A stretch of DNA of 64,000 nt, taken from assembly GCA_035627515.1 (NCBI GenBank), contig DASPLQ010000012.1, forward strand, positions 135,269 through 199,268. Direction: 5' to 3'. Below, piece after piece: positions 40,759 to 47,633 of the stretch. Numbering within the stretch: the first letter of the stretch is position 1; each line of letters begins with the position of its first letter. The notes below the pieces were generated by a model. It was not told where the DNA came from and ran no database searches. It saw only the letters and a list, made by a program, of their open reading frames with translations. Origin of the DNA: Vitreimonas sp. (GTDB taxonomy: Bacteria; Patescibacteriota; Microgenomatia; UBA1400; PJMF01). The position numbers were made by a program, and so were the translations under genes.

Positions 40759-41061
40759 TTAGACGAATTGTATCTTTAACTTTTTGTTGAACGCTGACGC
40801 AATTGTCATTAGCGTATTTAAAGTTGGATTATAGGAGCCAGATTCTATCTTAGTAATTGTCGTACGGGGTAAGTTAGCTCGCTTAGCTACCTCTGCTTGG
40901 GTCAAATGTAACTTTTTTCGCATTTTTCTTAACTCAACCAAAATATCATAGTAAAGCAACTCTAGCTCTACTATCTGTTTTTGTTCTAGTGTGAAATCTT
41001 TGGCAAATTCTTCTAAAGTAATAGTTTTCTTTTTAAGAATAGTATTTAGTTTTTTATTCAT
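40759..41061 (-). CDS. XRE-family HTH antitoxin (HigA-like)
   Basis: LTQAEVAKRANLPRTTITKIESG HTH. It overlaps the upstream toxin gene by 4 nt. Confidence 0.6.
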   Translation of the reverse strand: MNKKLNTILKKKTITLEEFAKDFTLEQKQIVELELLYYDILVELRKMRKKLHLTQAEVAKRANLPRTTITKIESGSYNPTLNTLMTIASAFNKKLKIQFV

Positions 41062-41375
41062 ATGATGTATTCCTTTAATCGCTTGGTAGCTTTCTCTATT
41101 TCATTTAATGGTGTTTGCTCAGTTTTTTTGTGAAAAGCTGATAATAAAATGACTACATCATTATCCAAGTAAGAATACAACACCCTCCACTCACCCTTAT
41201 ATTTAATCCTTAACTCAAAGAGGCTCTTATTAATTCGCTTACCTAGTGGCTCTTCTAATTTTCCATACTTAGCTAAGCTTCTTGAATGAGCCTCAACTCG
41301 AGCAATAACAACTAGTGGAAACTTAGAAATTTCTCTATTAGCTCGTTTATCAACTGCAATTGTTTTCTTATTCAT
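41058..41375 (-). CDS. HigB/RelE-ParE (Gp49-like) toxin
   Basis: LFELRIKYKGEWRVLYSY…VVILLSAFHKKTEQTP pattern. It sits upstream of the XRE antitoxin, which is the HigBA gene order. Confidence 0.5.
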   Translation of the reverse strand: MNKKTIAVDKRANREISKFPLVVIARVEAHSRSLAKYGKLEEPLGKRINKSLFELRIKYKGEWRVLYSYLDNDVVILLSAFHKKTEQTPLNEIEKATKRLKEYII

Positions 41376-42828: not shown

Positions 42829-43374
42829 CTAATTAATGTTAGAGAGTATTTTACCATAGATGGAAAGAGCTATGGCAATGTCAGTTAAAATACCCTGATC
42901 CTGATGTGAAATTAACAAGGCGTGGCTAAGTTTTTTGTATGATATGTAAGAAGCATCTTTGATAGTTGTATCCTGCTGAGTTTGCTGATGAACATGTTTA
43001 CGAAAGGTATGTTTATCCACAAAAGCTAACCCTCGAGTGGTCATAGCCACAATCGTGTCAGGTTCAATTTCTAAGCCTACTACTGGAAATCGTTGTCCTA
43101 GCAACTGGAACTCGCTATGCTGAGCGTTTAATCTCTCCAACAGGGTAAAAACTTCTCTGAAAATATCATTCAGAAAGGTAACCTTGTCATCTAGACTCAA
43201 CCCGTCTTCTTCGACTAAGAAATAAAGCTCAGTAATCTCACTTAACTCACTCCAGGCTAGAATAACTTCATGGGCTAATCCTCGTTTAATGCCAGTAAGA
43301 AACTCGTGATTGAACTCACCGCTACAGATTTCTTCTACCATTTTTAAAACTTGTAATCGTTCTCTACTGGCCAT
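42829..43374 (-). CDS. Hypothetical protein
   Basis: ORF only. Confidence 0.4.
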   Translation of the reverse strand: MASRERLQVLKMVEEICSGEFNHEFLTGIKRGLAHEVILAWSELSEITELYFLVEEDGLSLDDKVTFLNDIFREVFTLLERLNAQHSEFQLLGQRFPVVGLEIEPDTIVAMTTRGLAFVDKHTFRKHVHQQTQQDTTIKDASYISYKKLSHALLISHQDQGILTDIAIALSIYGKILSNIN

Positions 43375-44475: not shown

Positions 44476-44646
44476 TGTTTCCTTTATTACTAGCTAGAGG
44501 TACTTACCCACTCTTAGTTCTTGCTACGTGGCGACTATTTTATCAAGACTTGGTTTAATTATCTCTAGCATTAATGCAATTTTCTTGTTGGTACTTACTT
44601 ATTCGCACTTTTTTAAAGTGTTTAGCAGTTAGATATAATAGAGGCT

Positions 44647-46260
44647 ATGAGTAATGAAAACTTCAACCCAGAAAACTATATAGGCGTAAGTGTTGCTGAG
44701 ATTTTTGGAGAGAGCAATGAAGGTGTTTCAGAAGACCACGCACATTTTTCAATCAAATTAAGAGAACGGCTACTAGCCATAGAGAAAAACGACATCGATG
44801 ACAATGATTTACCTTTATTCCTCTACCATTTGGCTTCAGCTGTCGCCAATGGTACTAGTTTGAGAAAGCTTGCTGATTATTATGGTTTGACCCACAAGAT
44901 CGTAGGCCAACTCCTACAGGCTGCTGGTATTCCATATGCATCTAGATCAGAAGCTGTTCAACGTTTTTGGACCAATGATAGTTATGCTGATGCCCGTGCT
45001 AAAAATCGTGAAGCTACAATCTCAGCTGCGCGCGAATTTTGGCGAGATGAAGACAGAAGCGCCACAGCTCGTCAAAAAGCTCGAGAACAAATGACCCAGC
45101 AGCGTCAAGACCCTGCCTTTGTTGAGGCTGCCACTGAAGCAGCTCGTCGTACTATGCAACAAAGATGGCAAGATCCCGAATATCGTCACCAGCATAGTGA
45201 AATGATGAAACGATTATGGCAAGATCCAGAGTATCGCCGCAACCAATTAGTGCATCTGTTTAACATCGCTGAAGAATTCAGAAATGACCCCGACTACCTT
45301 GAAAAACTCTCAGAAGCCCGCCGTCGGCTGTGGGAAGATCCAGATTTTTATGAAGCTCATGTCCAACGCTCTCGCGAAAATCTAGCCCGATTGAAACAAA
45401 CTCCCGAGTACCGTGAAAAACGCTCTCAATTAAGTAAAAAACAATGGAAAAATCCTGAGTTCAGAGCCAAAATGGCTCAGAAAGCCAGTAGACAGTTTTC
45501 TGAACTATGGAAAAATCCTGAATTCCGAGCATTTATCAGCGATCAATCTCGAGGGATTATGACAAGGTTAAATCAAGATCCTTCTTTTAAACAACGTCAA
45601 GCAGAAGCTCGATTAGAACGAGAAGAAGACGAGGAGTACCAAGCTCGAATTTCCGAAACGCGCCGTCAACTAGCGCTTGAATTTTGGCAACGCGAAGATT
45701 ATCGAGATAAACAAACCACTGCTCATGAAGAGCTATGGCAAGATCCGGAGTATCGTGCCCATATGGAAGAAATTAAGAGACAACAGTGGAATGACCTTAC
45801 TTTTAGAGAAAAATTAATTTTGCCTACTCAGTATGGCTACCGATCAGATATTGGTTTCTTTGCCCAATCTGCTATGGAAGCCAATGTAGCTCGCGTTTTT
45901 ATGCATTCTGGTAAAGAGTTTATGGTAGGAATGGTTCTTGAATTGCAGGTCACAGAAGAATTTAGTGATCTATTCAACGGACCATTCACGCGCTTCAATG
46001 TTGACTTTACCTTAACTGACCGAAGTAGTCGCACGGTGATCTACGAACTAATGGCTCATCCTTTTGAAGATCCTGAGGGGTGGGCTAAATTGACAATGGC
46101 TCAGCAACAATATCCTGACATTATTTTCAAAGTTATCGATCAAAAACTTTATAAGAGGTTACAAAACCGCTTTGAAGACGCAATTAATAATTCTGCTAAA
46201 TTTCATGGGTGGGAAAAAACCGGGTTTAACTTACGAACAAACCCAGATCTTTTTGGATGA
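44647..46260 (+). CDS. Tandem-repeat protein: N-terminal HTH-like region, ~12-14 copies of a ~20-aa unit (…R/K-x-x-W-x-D-P-E-Y/F-R…), and a C-terminal globular domain
   Basis: The repeats are seen directly (WQDPEYR x4, WKNPEFR x2, WEDPDFY, RNDPDYL and others). Confidence 0.55.
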   Translation: MSNENFNPENYIGVSVAEIFGESNEGVSEDHAHFSIKLRERLLAIEKNDIDDNDLPLFLYHLASAVANGTSLRKLADYYGLTHKIVGQLLQAAGIPYASRSEAVQRFWTNDSYADARAKNREATISAAREFWRDEDRSATARQKAREQMTQQRQDPAFVEAATEAARRTMQQRWQDPEYRHQHSEMMKRLWQDPEYRRNQLVHLFNIAEEFRNDPDYLEKLSEARRRLWEDPDFYEAHVQRSRENLARLKQTPEYREKRSQLSKKQWKNPEFRAKMAQKASRQFSELWKNPEFRAFISDQSRGIMTRLNQDPSFKQRQAEARLEREEDEEYQARISETRRQLALEFWQREDYRDKQTTAHEELWQDPEYRAHMEEIKRQQWNDLTFREKLILPTQYGYRSDIGFFAQSAMEANVARVFMHSGKEFMVGMVLELQVTEEFSDLFNGPFTRFNVDFTLTDRSSRTVIYELMAHPFEDPEGWAKLTMAQQQYPDIIFKVIDQKLYKRLQNRFEDAINNSAKFHGWEKTGFNLRTNPDLFG

Positions 46261-46300
46261 GTAGTAGTTATCTACTTATGAGCAAGTATAATTCTCAATA

Positions 46301-46978
46301 ATGCTACGATCATTATTACTATCCAAGCCTCTCCCTTTCTCGATAGATCGATGGTGGTATGTATTTTTTACTATTATCTATCCTCTCTTTCTGATTATTA
46401 TTTTTCAGTTTTTGATTTTAATAGACTCAACGCCTGATACTCTCTACTATGACCCCTTTCTAGCATTTCTATTTGACCCACTTATATTTATGTGTTTTTA
46501 CCCAGTCTTTCTAGGCGCAATAATCTCGGAAGTATTACTAGCTAAATCTTTTAAGATCTATGCTAAAAAGAAGTTCATTCGGCGCGGAATATGGGCAGGG
46601 ACATTAACTGCGTGGCTCTTTTTTATAGCGACTATATACTACATGCTTCCCGCTCTGCTTAAATCTGCGGTAGGTGATATGCAGCCGGAGGTGCGCAGAG
46701 TTAGTATTTTGTTTCTCACAATAATAGTAGTTACTCTGGGAGGAACTCTTACCTTATCGCATTATAAATCCCGATGGTTACCTATACTGTATCTACTATT
46801 TCACCCTGGAATAGCCATTCTTGGGCTACTCAGTCTCCAACTTTTCGGGACACCTTTAAATATCTTTCTCGAGCCTCTAGAAATCCCAGCTATGATTAGC
46901 TTTTCCTTAATAATTCTCACTCCTGCTTTTGCTACTTATTTTGCTACCAATTTGTTACGACAATTGTATGAAGTGTAA
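46301..46978 (+). CDS. Hypothetical polytopic membrane protein
   Basis: Six or more hydrophobic segments. Confidence 0.45.
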   Translation: MLRSLLLSKPLPFSIDRWWYVFFTIIYPLFLIIIFQFLILIDSTPDTLYYDPFLAFLFDPLIFMCFYPVFLGAIISEVLLAKSFKIYAKKKFIRRGIWAGTLTAWLFFIATIYYMLPALLKSAVGDMQPEVRRVSILFLTIIVVTLGGTLTLSHYKSRWLPILYLLFHPGIAILGLLSLQLFGTPLNIFLEPLEIPAMISFSLIILTPAFATYFATNLLRQLYEV

Positions 46979-46997
46979 AATGTAGTATTCGATAGCC

Positions 46998-47633
46998 ATG
47001 GCCTTTCCTCTACTCTTAACCGCCATTCGGTTACTCATCCCTTTCTCTATCTTGGTGTGGCCTTTAGCTGGACTTTTACTCTCAGCCACCATCGATATGT
47101 ACGATTGGAAATTTTTTCCATTTAGCGACGAAGCTAGCTATGCCTTGTATCAAAACTGGGATAAAACACTGGATTTTTACTATTGGTTATTTGCACTGTT
47201 CATTACTTTTAAATGGTCTGAAAAAACTGCCCGCTTGCTCGCTGTGGGATTGTTTGGATGGCGGATAGTAGGAATGGTTATTTTCTTTCTATCGCAATGG
47301 CGACCAGCCTTATTTTTCTTTCCCAATGTCTTTGAAAATTTTGTGCTTTTTTACTTGGCCTATGCTGCGGTTGCCAAAGGCAGGCCTTTATTTACTTCTT
47401 GGCAAATCATGGCCACAGTCTTGCTCAGCATTGTTGTGCCCAAATTAGTTCACGAATACTTTATGCATTTTCTGGCTAAGCAACCATGGGAAGTGTATGA
47501 CGTCGCGAGCTGGCTAGGTCTGACTACGGGAACAACTCATGAATACGGTAACTATGTAGCGTGGGGACTGATTTTGCATACTGTGACAATATCAGTGCTA
47601 ATTTTCTATGTTAAGAAAAATCAAGCTAAATAA
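46998..47633 (+). CDS. Hypothetical polytopic membrane protein
   Basis: Hydrophobic segments. It lies adjacent to the previous membrane protein. Confidence 0.45.
   Translation: MAFPLLLTAIRLLIPFSILVWPLAGLLLSATIDMYDWKFFPFSDEASYALYQNWDKTLDFYYWLFALFITFKWSEKTARLLAVGLFGWRIVGMVIFFLSQWRPALFFFPNVFENFVLFYLAYAAVAKGRPLFTSWQIMATVLLSIVVPKLVHEYFMHFLAKQPWEVYDVASWLGLTTGTTHEYGNYVAWGLILHTVTISVLIFYVKKNQAK

Follow-up and report, generated by a model that had tools for sequence, protein, structure and literature searches.

What does a gene built largely of short tandem repeats encode, and does it belong with the two membrane-protein genes that follow it? These questions are raised by a locus in a 64,000-nucleotide stretch of DNA (the window, by which we mean that whole stretch) from Vitreimonas sp. 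(GTDB lineage Bacteria; Patescibacteriota; Microgenomatia; UBA1400; PJMF01; GenBank assembly GCA_035627515.1, contig DASPLQ010000012.1, positions 135,269 to 199,268 of the forward strand). The gene in question (44647..46260, + strand; 537 codons plus stop in the list of open reading frames, ORFs) had been read, from the letters alone, as encoding a repeat protein with no evident nuclease domain, possibly a modular binder of nucleic acid or an exported effector. We find instead that the protein ends in a nuclease domain with the PD-(D/E)xK fold, of the T7 endonuclease I and TnsA type, preceded by a helical repeat array and a head that resembles a helix-turn-helix (HTH). The full-length AlphaFold model shows the same order of an HTH-like head, a helical array, a low-confidence linker and an alpha/beta domain, with a mean predicted local distance difference test score (pLDDT) of 82 and a predicted template modelling score (pTM) of 0.31, which leaves the shape of the array uncertain. 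We judge it reasonably probable that the gene encodes a free-standing, modular, site-specific nuclease of the homing-endonuclease kind, with a non-canonical active site that is probably still metal-dependent; we infer its activity, target and mobility.

A word-based search returned 85 proteins, of which about 24 are full-length relatives with 25-48% identity; the others have only the repeats in common with the 537-residue protein and carry other domains. The homologs open with an identical MS-xExF-P motif, which backs the assigned start codon.

Fold and active site of the nuclease domain

The nuclease domain spans residues 393-537 (45823..46257, + strand) and belongs with T7 endonuclease I, DUF1064 and TnsA-like proteins. 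We modelled residues 385-537 alone from an alignment of 80 family sequences and obtained a pLDDT of 93.9 and a pTM of 0.87. The model contains a helix (409-420), three strands (425-434, 447-457 and 463-468), a second helix (476-488) and a final strand (493-497). This is the alpha-beta-beta-beta-alpha-beta core of the PD-(D/E)xK fold, in which strands 2 and 3 bear the active site. The globular C-terminal domain of the original prediction thus exists; it is about 145 residues long, not about 170, and it is a nuclease domain.

Structural searches place the domain in the same fold class. Foldseek against the PDB ranked TnsA first (probability 1.00, E 2.5e-3, TMq 0.54), and nearly all of the matches listed in the PDB and in BFVD (predicted viral structures) are PD-(D/E)xK nucleases. 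An independent structural search (VIA) also found TnsA (Z 7.4-7.6 over 130-132 of 153 residues), along with RAP domains (6.7-7.8), the I-Bth0305I catalytic domain (6.4-6.6), Vsr (5.9), VRR-NUC (5.8) and Hjc (4.3); these Z values are middling and therefore show, on their own, the fold only. T7 endonuclease I itself is absent among the matches listed in the PDB structural searches. BFVD gave 34 matches at E <= 1e-3, the best being Gp28 of Bacillus phage G (E 3.1e-9, TMq 0.73). Many of them are named Endonuclease I (E 1e-6 to 1e-3), TnsA-like, "Nuclease associated modular domain 3" (NUMOD3) or homing endonuclease. In the ESM Atlas, the domain has as neighbours clusters of phage DUF1064, Phage_endo_I and TnsA-like proteins, and in two of these clusters 21-24% of the members carry NUMOD3.

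The family assignment comes from sequence profiles. An exhaustive search with residues 385-537 among 1.84 billion proteins found 123 cluster representatives at E <= 1e-3, in which the domain is nearly always C-terminal. We scanned 84 of these representatives against Pfam: Phage_endo_I was found in nine, DUF1064 in two, VRR_NUC in one and NUMOD3 in four. Three of the nine pass the Phage_endo_I gathering score of 29.1 bits (P0186, 53.4 bits; P0172 and P0190, 33.1 bits each). The profile of the 80-sequence family, compared with structures of T7 endonuclease I, matched 1m0d_A (E 9.9e-5), 3cae_A (1e-4), 2pfj_A (4.4e-4) and 1fzr_A (1.3e-3), and the register pairs v-D-F with TPDF, y-E-i-m with VETK and wa-K-l...q-y-P with RKKH...QHP. 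As judged from these profile alignments, the domain is homologous to T7 endonuclease I. Searches with the 537-residue protein itself gave no sign of this relationship: no nuclease family was matched in Pfam, NCBIfam or PADLOC, Phage_endo_I (PF05367) gave no match at E <= 1, and phmmer against PDB sequences returned nothing lower than E 0.09. T7 endonuclease I is a domain-swapped dimer. A complex prediction with two copies of the nuclease domain scored 0.00 (mark 0.42). Separately, one of the representatives above the gathering score, P0172 (245 aa), has an endonuclease-I-like domain, its E-I-K-G motif intact, fused to a C-terminal domain resembling the RNA polymerase alpha CTD (PF03118, 25.8 bits).

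We then counted residues over the 80 aligned family members. Glu411 (45877..45879, + strand), in the first core helix within S-x-x-E-A-N-x-A-R, is invariant (80/80) and would be the counterpart of Glu20 of T7 endonuclease I, as suggested by its position in the fold rather than by direct alignment. Asp453 (46003..46005, +), in the "PD" motif V-D-F, is likewise invariant (80/80) and falls on the D of TPDF. The (D/E)xK motif is represented by E467-L-M469-A-H471 (46045..46059, +), which the profile aligns to VETK: Glu467 falls on the E and is E or D in 77 of the 80 members, Met469 takes the place of the catalytic Lys, and His471 is specific to a clade. From this register it follows that Asp453 and Glu467 are the PD and (D/E) residues. 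Lys481 (46087..46089, +), in the second core helix (476-488), falls on RKK of T7 endonuclease I and is a candidate substitute for the missing Lys; PD-(D/E)xK variants in which the Lys has migrated into the second core helix are documented (PMC3424549; this and the other articles cited by PMC number are drawn on in part).

Lack of the catalytic Lys is common in the family. Position 469 is M, L, I, V or C in 63/80 members, Lys in 16/80 and Thr in 1/80. The 63 Lys-less members keep Glu411 (63/63), Asp453 (63/63) and E or D at 467 (61/63), and most have Lys481 (56/63) and His471 (49/63); the 16 members with E-x-K all have Lys481 and never His471 (0/16). In a quick maximum-likelihood tree of the 80 rows, built with columns 469 and 471 masked, a single branch with SH-aLRT support of 98 separates 61 rows (60 hydrophobic, one Thr) from 19 (16 Lys, three hydrophobic). 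The same pattern is seen in fetched loci: the 20 that match the nuclease domain at tblastn E <= 1.2e-30 all have a hydrophobic residue at 469, and 18 of them have His471, while Lys stands at 469 in 51 of the remaining 78, some viral loci being the same contigs as metagenome loci. At the level of aligned sequences, the replacement of the catalytic Lys, here by Met469, is shown to mark a single clade of 61 members in which the acids Glu411, Asp453 and Glu467 are retained. Pfam has no model for the nuclease domain of this clade.

The repeat array and the N-terminal module

The repeat array occupies residues 96-392 (about 94-392; 44932..45822, + strand), as delimited by autocorrelation and by the helices of the model, and is joined to the nuclease domain by a linker with pLDDT <50 in the full-length model (residues 386-394; 45802..45828, +). 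To assess its periodicity, we calculated the BLOSUM62 autocorrelation over residues 96-400 and took as the bar z 3.4, the 95th percentile of the best z over 1000 shuffles. Peaks were found at lags of 17 (z 6.3), 21 (z 7.0), 38 (z 10.7) and 59 (z 7.1), and no peak in residues 1-95 or 401-537 rose above the bar; the periodicity is therefore real. It corresponds to alternating units of 17 and 21 residues that make a two-helix super-repeat of 38. Thus an ORF with tandem repeats is real, and the earlier count of 12-14 was about right, while the unit is this alternating pair rather than a repeat of about 20 residues. The strict anchor [DNT][PLS]x[FY] occurs 11 times in the protein, between residues 155 and 383, and the number of units rises to ~15 when the degenerate WTNDSY, WRDEDR, EEDEEY, WQREDY and WNDLTF are counted. 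The full-length model has 14 consecutive helices between residues 111 and 382, long and short in alternation, and each begins at the Asp-Pro of the motif W-x-D-P-E-[FY]-R, which forms the N-cap. Compared with the PDB, this model matched through its nuclease domain only; the helical array, which was not folded by itself, had no match.

The units are also conserved between proteins. Among 157 units from 18 family members, a spacing of 21 residues occurs 39 times and one of 17 occurs 34 times, and the consensus is DPE[FY]R-x-[KR]-x-[SR]-E-x-x-[RK]-x-[LR]-W-x-DPE[FY]R. Units of homologs are 41-48% identical when they correspond and 20-21% when they do not, from which it follows that the array is old and that every unit has its own identity. 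Tandem Repeats Finder found no tandem array at the DNA level in the gene, and DNA similarity is limited to the cores coding for WQDPEYR (63-89% over 28-41 nt). A simple TALE-like code was considered and rejected: variability is spread across many repeat positions, without one or two hypervariable residues. Motifs of the DPxF type number 0-11 per protein in the Lys-less group (median 2) and 0-1 in the Lys group, with the window protein at the maximum.

Preceding the array, the N-terminal module (residues 1-95; 44647..44931, + strand) is acidic (pI 4.8) and ends in three short helices, 58-67, 72-79 and 83-93 (GTSLRKLADYYGLTHKIVGQLLQAAGIPY), modelled with pLDDT 85-89. Their arrangement in the model makes an HTH plausible, as had been proposed from the letters; the Pfam family HTH_psq gives E 0.12, below threshold, so that the likeness stands on the model helices and not on a family match. 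The module is conserved in group A1, and within the E-x-K branch it is shared by P0160 only.

What are these repeats? NUMOD3, to which they had been likened, was reportedly first defined by Sitbon and Pietrokovski. It is the minor-groove-binding helix of I-TevI, I-HmuI and I-BmoI (PMC3664794). With hhalign, 14 repeat pairs (46 aa) aligned to 7 Pfam-delimited NUMOD3 segments with a probability of only 54% (E 1.3e-4 over 23 columns); the register is sensible, with DPEyR..S..R on HSEEtK..S..K. A Pfam scan of 16 relatives that share only the repeats found GIY-YIG, SegE_GIY-YIG, LEM-3 GIY-YIG, HNH_3, intein plus HNH, DUF559 (Vsr-like), MTES_1575, Mom, DUF7487 and NUMOD3, so that the repeats occur as a module beside nuclease domains of several unrelated folds, as NUMOD3 does. 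Two proteins (P0058, P0072) carry WxDPEYR repeats and canonical NUMOD3 in a single chain, and P0160 has the HTH head, NUMOD3 in the place of the repeats and the family nuclease domain with an intact E-V-K-G motif. The PHROG matches of the repeat protein are to HNH and homing endonucleases and are weak. Taken together, the domain partners indicate that the repeats behave as NUMOD3-like, nuclease-associated modular repeats. The proposed kinship with NUMOD3 holds in this sense of co-occurrence with GIY-YIG, HNH and true NUMOD3, and not as a match to the Pfam family, which is absent at E <= 1.

Other identities were considered for the repeats. GerD, STI1-DP, nitrile hydratase alpha, cyclodipeptide synthase and YlbF are matches at the level of the W-x-DPEF helix-cap motif. 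The GerD models score the repeat region of the 537-residue protein at 25.9 bits (Pfam PF17898, gathering score 29.5; relatives reach 56.1) and the protein at 23.5 bits (NCBIfam NF040801, cut-off 100), and the sequence of the GerD structure (PDB 4O8W) is matched weakly, with E 0.04 by the family profile and 0.14 by P0103. We reject the GerD-type matches because the scores of the 537-residue protein lie below the cut-offs and because unrelated helical proteins, one of them designed, match in the same way.

Three observations on repeat-bearing relatives stand apart. Five nuclease-linked proteins from non-sporulating lineages (P0103, P0025, P0027, P0089 and P0094) score 42-56 bits with GerD, above the gathering score of 29.5, and automatic mislabelling as GerD is therefore likely. 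Three metagenomic proteins of 630-726 aa (P0030, P0031 and P0045) combine W-x-DPE[FY]R repeats with a restriction fold of the MTES_1575 type and a C-terminal domain of the Mom family, the DNA-modification family of phage Mu; this fusion architecture is unusual. Finally, two frames of 1394 and 682 aa in a CPR (Candidate Phyla Radiation) genome of the same order (L011 and L012; G043, contig 15) have the repeat and lack the nuclease domain.

Distribution, genomic context and competing explanations

If this is a homing-endonuclease-like gene, how is it distributed? It is present in a single copy in its own 1.5-Mb genome, was found in 0 of 36 genomes of the same family, and left only a repeat-level match in one of 24 genomes of the same order. 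Its relatives occur in Daviesbacteria and other Patescibacteria (CPR), in Woesearchaeota and Nanoarchaeia (DPANN), and in one gammaproteobacterial metagenome-assembled genome (MAG). At seven relatives' loci the neighbours are aminoacyl-tRNA synthetases, IF3, thermosome, toxin-antitoxin pairs, an Eco57I-type methylase and Vsr; they are mostly housekeeping genes, and none is conserved. Apart from the repeat protein, none of 6 window proteins was found near the relatives in 9 genome loci, and none of 16 in 72 metagenome loci. A sporadic, horizontally scattered distribution without conserved neighbours is a trait of homing endonucleases, and this gene has it; it has probably passed from one lineage to another as a selfish gene. 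One homolog, encoded on a Candidatus Daviesbacteria MAG contig, is interrupted: where a repeat has a conserved Trp codon (TGG), the frame has TGA (L001:6310-6312), and the part 3' of this TGA is called as a separate protein of 331 aa (P0012). The copy may be decaying, the TGA may be a sequencing error, or the stop may be recoded.

In the window, the gene lies exactly at the end of the conserved rpsR-ssb-rpsF-ychF block and faces away from ychF. Eleven of 15 relatives' loci have the ychF-rpsF-ssb-rpsR order in synteny, and nearly all differ on the 5' side of ychF. No tRNA genes were found near the gene (38-52 kb).

The mechanism that we propose is as follows. The HTH-like head and the helical array would stretch along an extended DNA target, with the nuclease domain tethered to them, and this domain would hydrolyse nearby DNA by means of a divalent metal held at Glu411, Asp453 and Glu467. 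The role of the catalytic Lys may be taken by Lys481 of the adjacent helix, by the clade-specific His471, or by both, so that the site would still work. An enzyme of this Lys-less kind may be slower, or may be a nicking enzyme.

Several observations weigh against this reading. At the active site, Met469 lies on the catalytic Lys of T7 endonuclease I (the K of VETK), in which mutating any of Glu20, Pro54, Asp55, Glu65 or Lys67 cuts cleavage by at least 100-fold (PMC11833611, a secondary source), and Lys481 is not a clade-specific gain or compensation, because the E-x-K branch has it too. The array carries almost no net charge (58 K+R, 55 D+E; pI 9.0), which is unusual for a DNA binder, and its shape is left uncertain by the low pTM of the full-length model. 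The 537-residue protein has no match at E <= 1 to Pfam NUMOD3 (PF07460, gathering score 20.4 bits), which is also absent from the precomputed domains of all of P0002-P0024. Neither an insertion boundary nor an empty site can be defined, because the 5' side of ychF is non-syntenic and every compared relative is of another genus, and no meaningful direct or terminal inverted repeats flank the gene between 43.3 and 48.4 kb. The nuclease domain had no tblastn match in GenBank phages; viral contigs contained no close relative and 18 distant matches to the nuclease domain only, several of them on contigs of the metagenome loci.

There is a different possibility, to which we give perhaps one chance in five: the Lys-less clade may be a domesticated, nuclease-dead, sequence-specific DNA binder that serves the host in regulation, in the nucleoid or in segregation, and in which the former nuclease domain is kept as a platform for DNA binding or oligomerisation. 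A hydrophobic residue (Met or L/I/V) at the catalytic Lys position in 63/80 members and in all 20 close loci is what this would produce, the change is old and clade-wide, and the at least 100-fold loss of cleavage in the catalytic-residue mutants of T7 endonuclease I (PMC11833611) points the same way. So do the strong conservation across the whole nuclease domain, which indicates purifying selection, and the lack of any close relative found in phages. The three acidic metal ligands, however, are kept in 61-63 of 63 Lys-less members, which is hard to explain if metal binding is irrelevant, and PD-(D/E)xK enzymes that lack the Lys or have it migrated and still cut are documented (PMC3424549). 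Nor would a gene of benefit to the host be expected to be missing from 36/36 genomes of the same family or to be scattered over CPR, DPANN and Proteobacteria, and one copy (L001) has a premature stop.

Could the enzyme instead act on DNA structure, as T7 endonuclease I does? A structure-specific nuclease, resolving Holliday junctions or branched DNA in recombination or repair with the array as a clamp or scaffold, seems improbable to us. The direct profile match is to a junction-resolving enzyme (PMC3424549), some BFVD matches are annotated "Holliday junction resolvase", and the gene stands beside ssb and ychF. Yet a housekeeping resolvase should be widespread, and this gene was found in 0/36 genomes of the same family; the ssb neighbourhood is not conserved at the relatives' loci; and modules that read sequence, such as an HTH or NUMOD3-like repeats, typify site-specific rather than structure-specific nucleases.

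Slightly less probable still is a defence nuclease that recognises phage or plasmid DNA through the repeat array. Its sporadic distribution, suggestive of horizontal gene transfer, would suit such a role, as would the toxin-antitoxin pairs, Eco57I-type methylase or Vsr beside some relatives and a Gp49/HTH_3 toxin-antitoxin-like pair 3 kb away in the window; but no PADLOC model matched (best E 0.046), there is no conserved partner gene, the relatives' neighbours are mostly housekeeping genes, and the architecture is that of a homing endonuclease.

The least likely idea, with hardly any weight left to it, is the originally predicted exported effector acting with the two membrane proteins (here mem1 and mem2), which draws on same-strand adjacency only, with a 40-nt gap to mem1 that holds no terminator-like site, and which is contradicted by the nuclease fold and nuclease-associated repeats of the protein, by its lack of any hydrophobic or signal-like segment, by the absence of mem1 and mem2 from 81/81 relatives' loci, by mem2 occurring without the repeat gene in 4/40 related genomes, and by mem1 being an orphan.

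The two membrane ORFs themselves exist as described, with several hydrophobic stretches each. The first, mem1 (46301..46978, + strand; 225 aa, ~6 hydrophobic stretches), has no Pfam family; a search of 5.8 billion clustered proteins returned nothing but the protein itself, and it was detected in none of 40 related genomes. Its ATG directly follows a TATAAT box. The second, mem2 (46998..47633, +; 211 aa), likewise has no Pfam family and belongs to an unannotated Patescibacteria family of 48 relatives, none with a Pfam domain or an informative name. The four related genomes that have it are ones in which the repeat-nuclease gene was not found, and their loci share no other window gene. Near the relatives of the repeat-nuclease gene, in all 9 genome and 72 metagenome loci, both are absent, so that the co-occurrence of the three genes proposed as a check was never seen. 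They are chance, unrelated neighbours.

Further features surround the gene. A purine-rich AGAGG (44640..44644, + strand) lies 2 nt 5' of the ATG and directly 3' of a TATAAT box (44634-44639, +), and a consensus scan gives TTTAAA-16-TATAAT at 44612-44639; these boxes are consensus matches only, and AGAGG and TATAAT are at best weak candidates for the ribosome-binding and promoter signals of the repeat gene. Between ychF and rpsF lies an ORF of 181 aa (42829-43374, - strand) with no Pfam family, which looks like a lineage-specific insertion because ychF and rpsF are adjacent in several relatives' loci (L110, L113, L115, L123). Between rpsR and the gene for an S41 C-terminal protease, overlapping frames (40759-41375, -) encode a Gp49 protein (HigB-like, 105 aa) and an HTH_3 protein (100 aa), which look like a toxin-antitoxin pair, 3 kb from the repeat-nuclease gene; in two relatives (L119 and L121) nothing separates rpsR from the protease gene.

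Comparison with known systems and significance

How does this protein relate to known nucleases? With T7 endonuclease I (PF05367; PDB 1M0D, 2PFJ, 1FZR, 3CAE) it shares, in register, the PD and (D/E)xK strands and the following helix (K...Q-x-P), and distant members of its nuclease-domain family pass the Phage_endo_I gathering score. It differs in having Met469 where T7 endonuclease I has the catalytic Lys, and in build: the phage enzyme is a small stand-alone junction resolvase, whereas here the domain is the tail of a 537-residue protein with an HTH-like head and ~15 repeats. TnsA, the endonuclease subunit of the Tn7 transposase (PDB 1F1Z, 1T0F; PF08722), is the best solved structural match of the nuclease domain, but with a sequence identity of only 8-12% and Z <8 it shows the fold and not the family. 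Unlike a Tn7-like transposon, moreover, the repeat-nuclease gene has no terminal repeats, and a Pfam scan of 13 neighbouring ORFs (39.4-50.9 kb) found no transposase family.

An architectural parallel is offered by the NUMOD3 homing endonucleases (I-TevI, I-BmoI, I-HmuI; PF07460), in which a nuclease is tethered to an extended, modular DNA-binding region of helical motifs and HTH (PMC3664794). There the nuclease is GIY-YIG or HNH and N-terminal, while here it is PD-(D/E)xK and C-terminal; the repeat here is of a distinct type, W-x-DPE-[FY]-R, which the NUMOD3 hidden Markov model does not recognise; and I-BmoI has three predicted NUMOD3 repeats (PMC3664794) against ~15 units here. Restriction-fold homing endonucleases have precedents in I-Ssp6803I and in the Vsr-like EDxHD family (I-Bth0305I, PDB 3R3P; PMC3424549), and I-Bth0305I is a structural match to our domain (Z 6.4-6.6). 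These enzymes belong to other PD-(D/E)xK families (Vsr/DUF559, PF11645) than the endonuclease I-like domain here, and they are intron-encoded, whereas this gene is free-standing. The homing endonucleases of CPR rRNA introns (PMC11270868) were considered and set aside, as they are LAGLIDADG enzymes and thus another family. The core of the spore-germination protein GerD (PF17898; PDB 4O8W) shares short helix-start motifs of the W/x-DPEF type, but the similarity is at the level of the motif only.

In the portions consulted of the literature on NUMOD3, T7-endonuclease-I-type and DUF1064 homing endonucleases, we found no description of a W-x-DPE[FY]R array or of a Lys-less clade. The array and the Lys-less endonuclease-I clade are the new elements; the general build is not unique.

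A bolder version of the same reading, which we regard as doubtful, sees in the 17- and 21-residue helices an alpha-solenoid, derived from NUMOD3, by which a very long DNA site would be read helix by helix; the solenoid would be coupled to an endonuclease-I-fold domain with a new Lys-less catalytic centre (E...D...E-x-M-x-H plus the helix Lys). If this were true, few arrays of the type would be longer than these ~15 individually conserved units, an undescribed class of mobile, modular nucleases or nickases with long sites would be common to CPR bacteria and DPANN archaea, and the repeat array could serve as a new scaffold for DNA targeting.

The findings also have nearer consequences. They remove a false lead, the pairing of an effector with membrane partners, and they correct annotation, since the repeats give above-threshold GerD scores in relatives. 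The homing-endonuclease repertoire would gain a build in which an endonuclease-I/TnsA-like PD-(D/E)xK domain stands behind an expanded NUMOD3-like helical array. Finally, a whole CPR/DPANN clade keeps the metal-binding acids and has a hydrophobic residue in place of the textbook catalytic Lys, which makes the replacement of this Lys directly testable.

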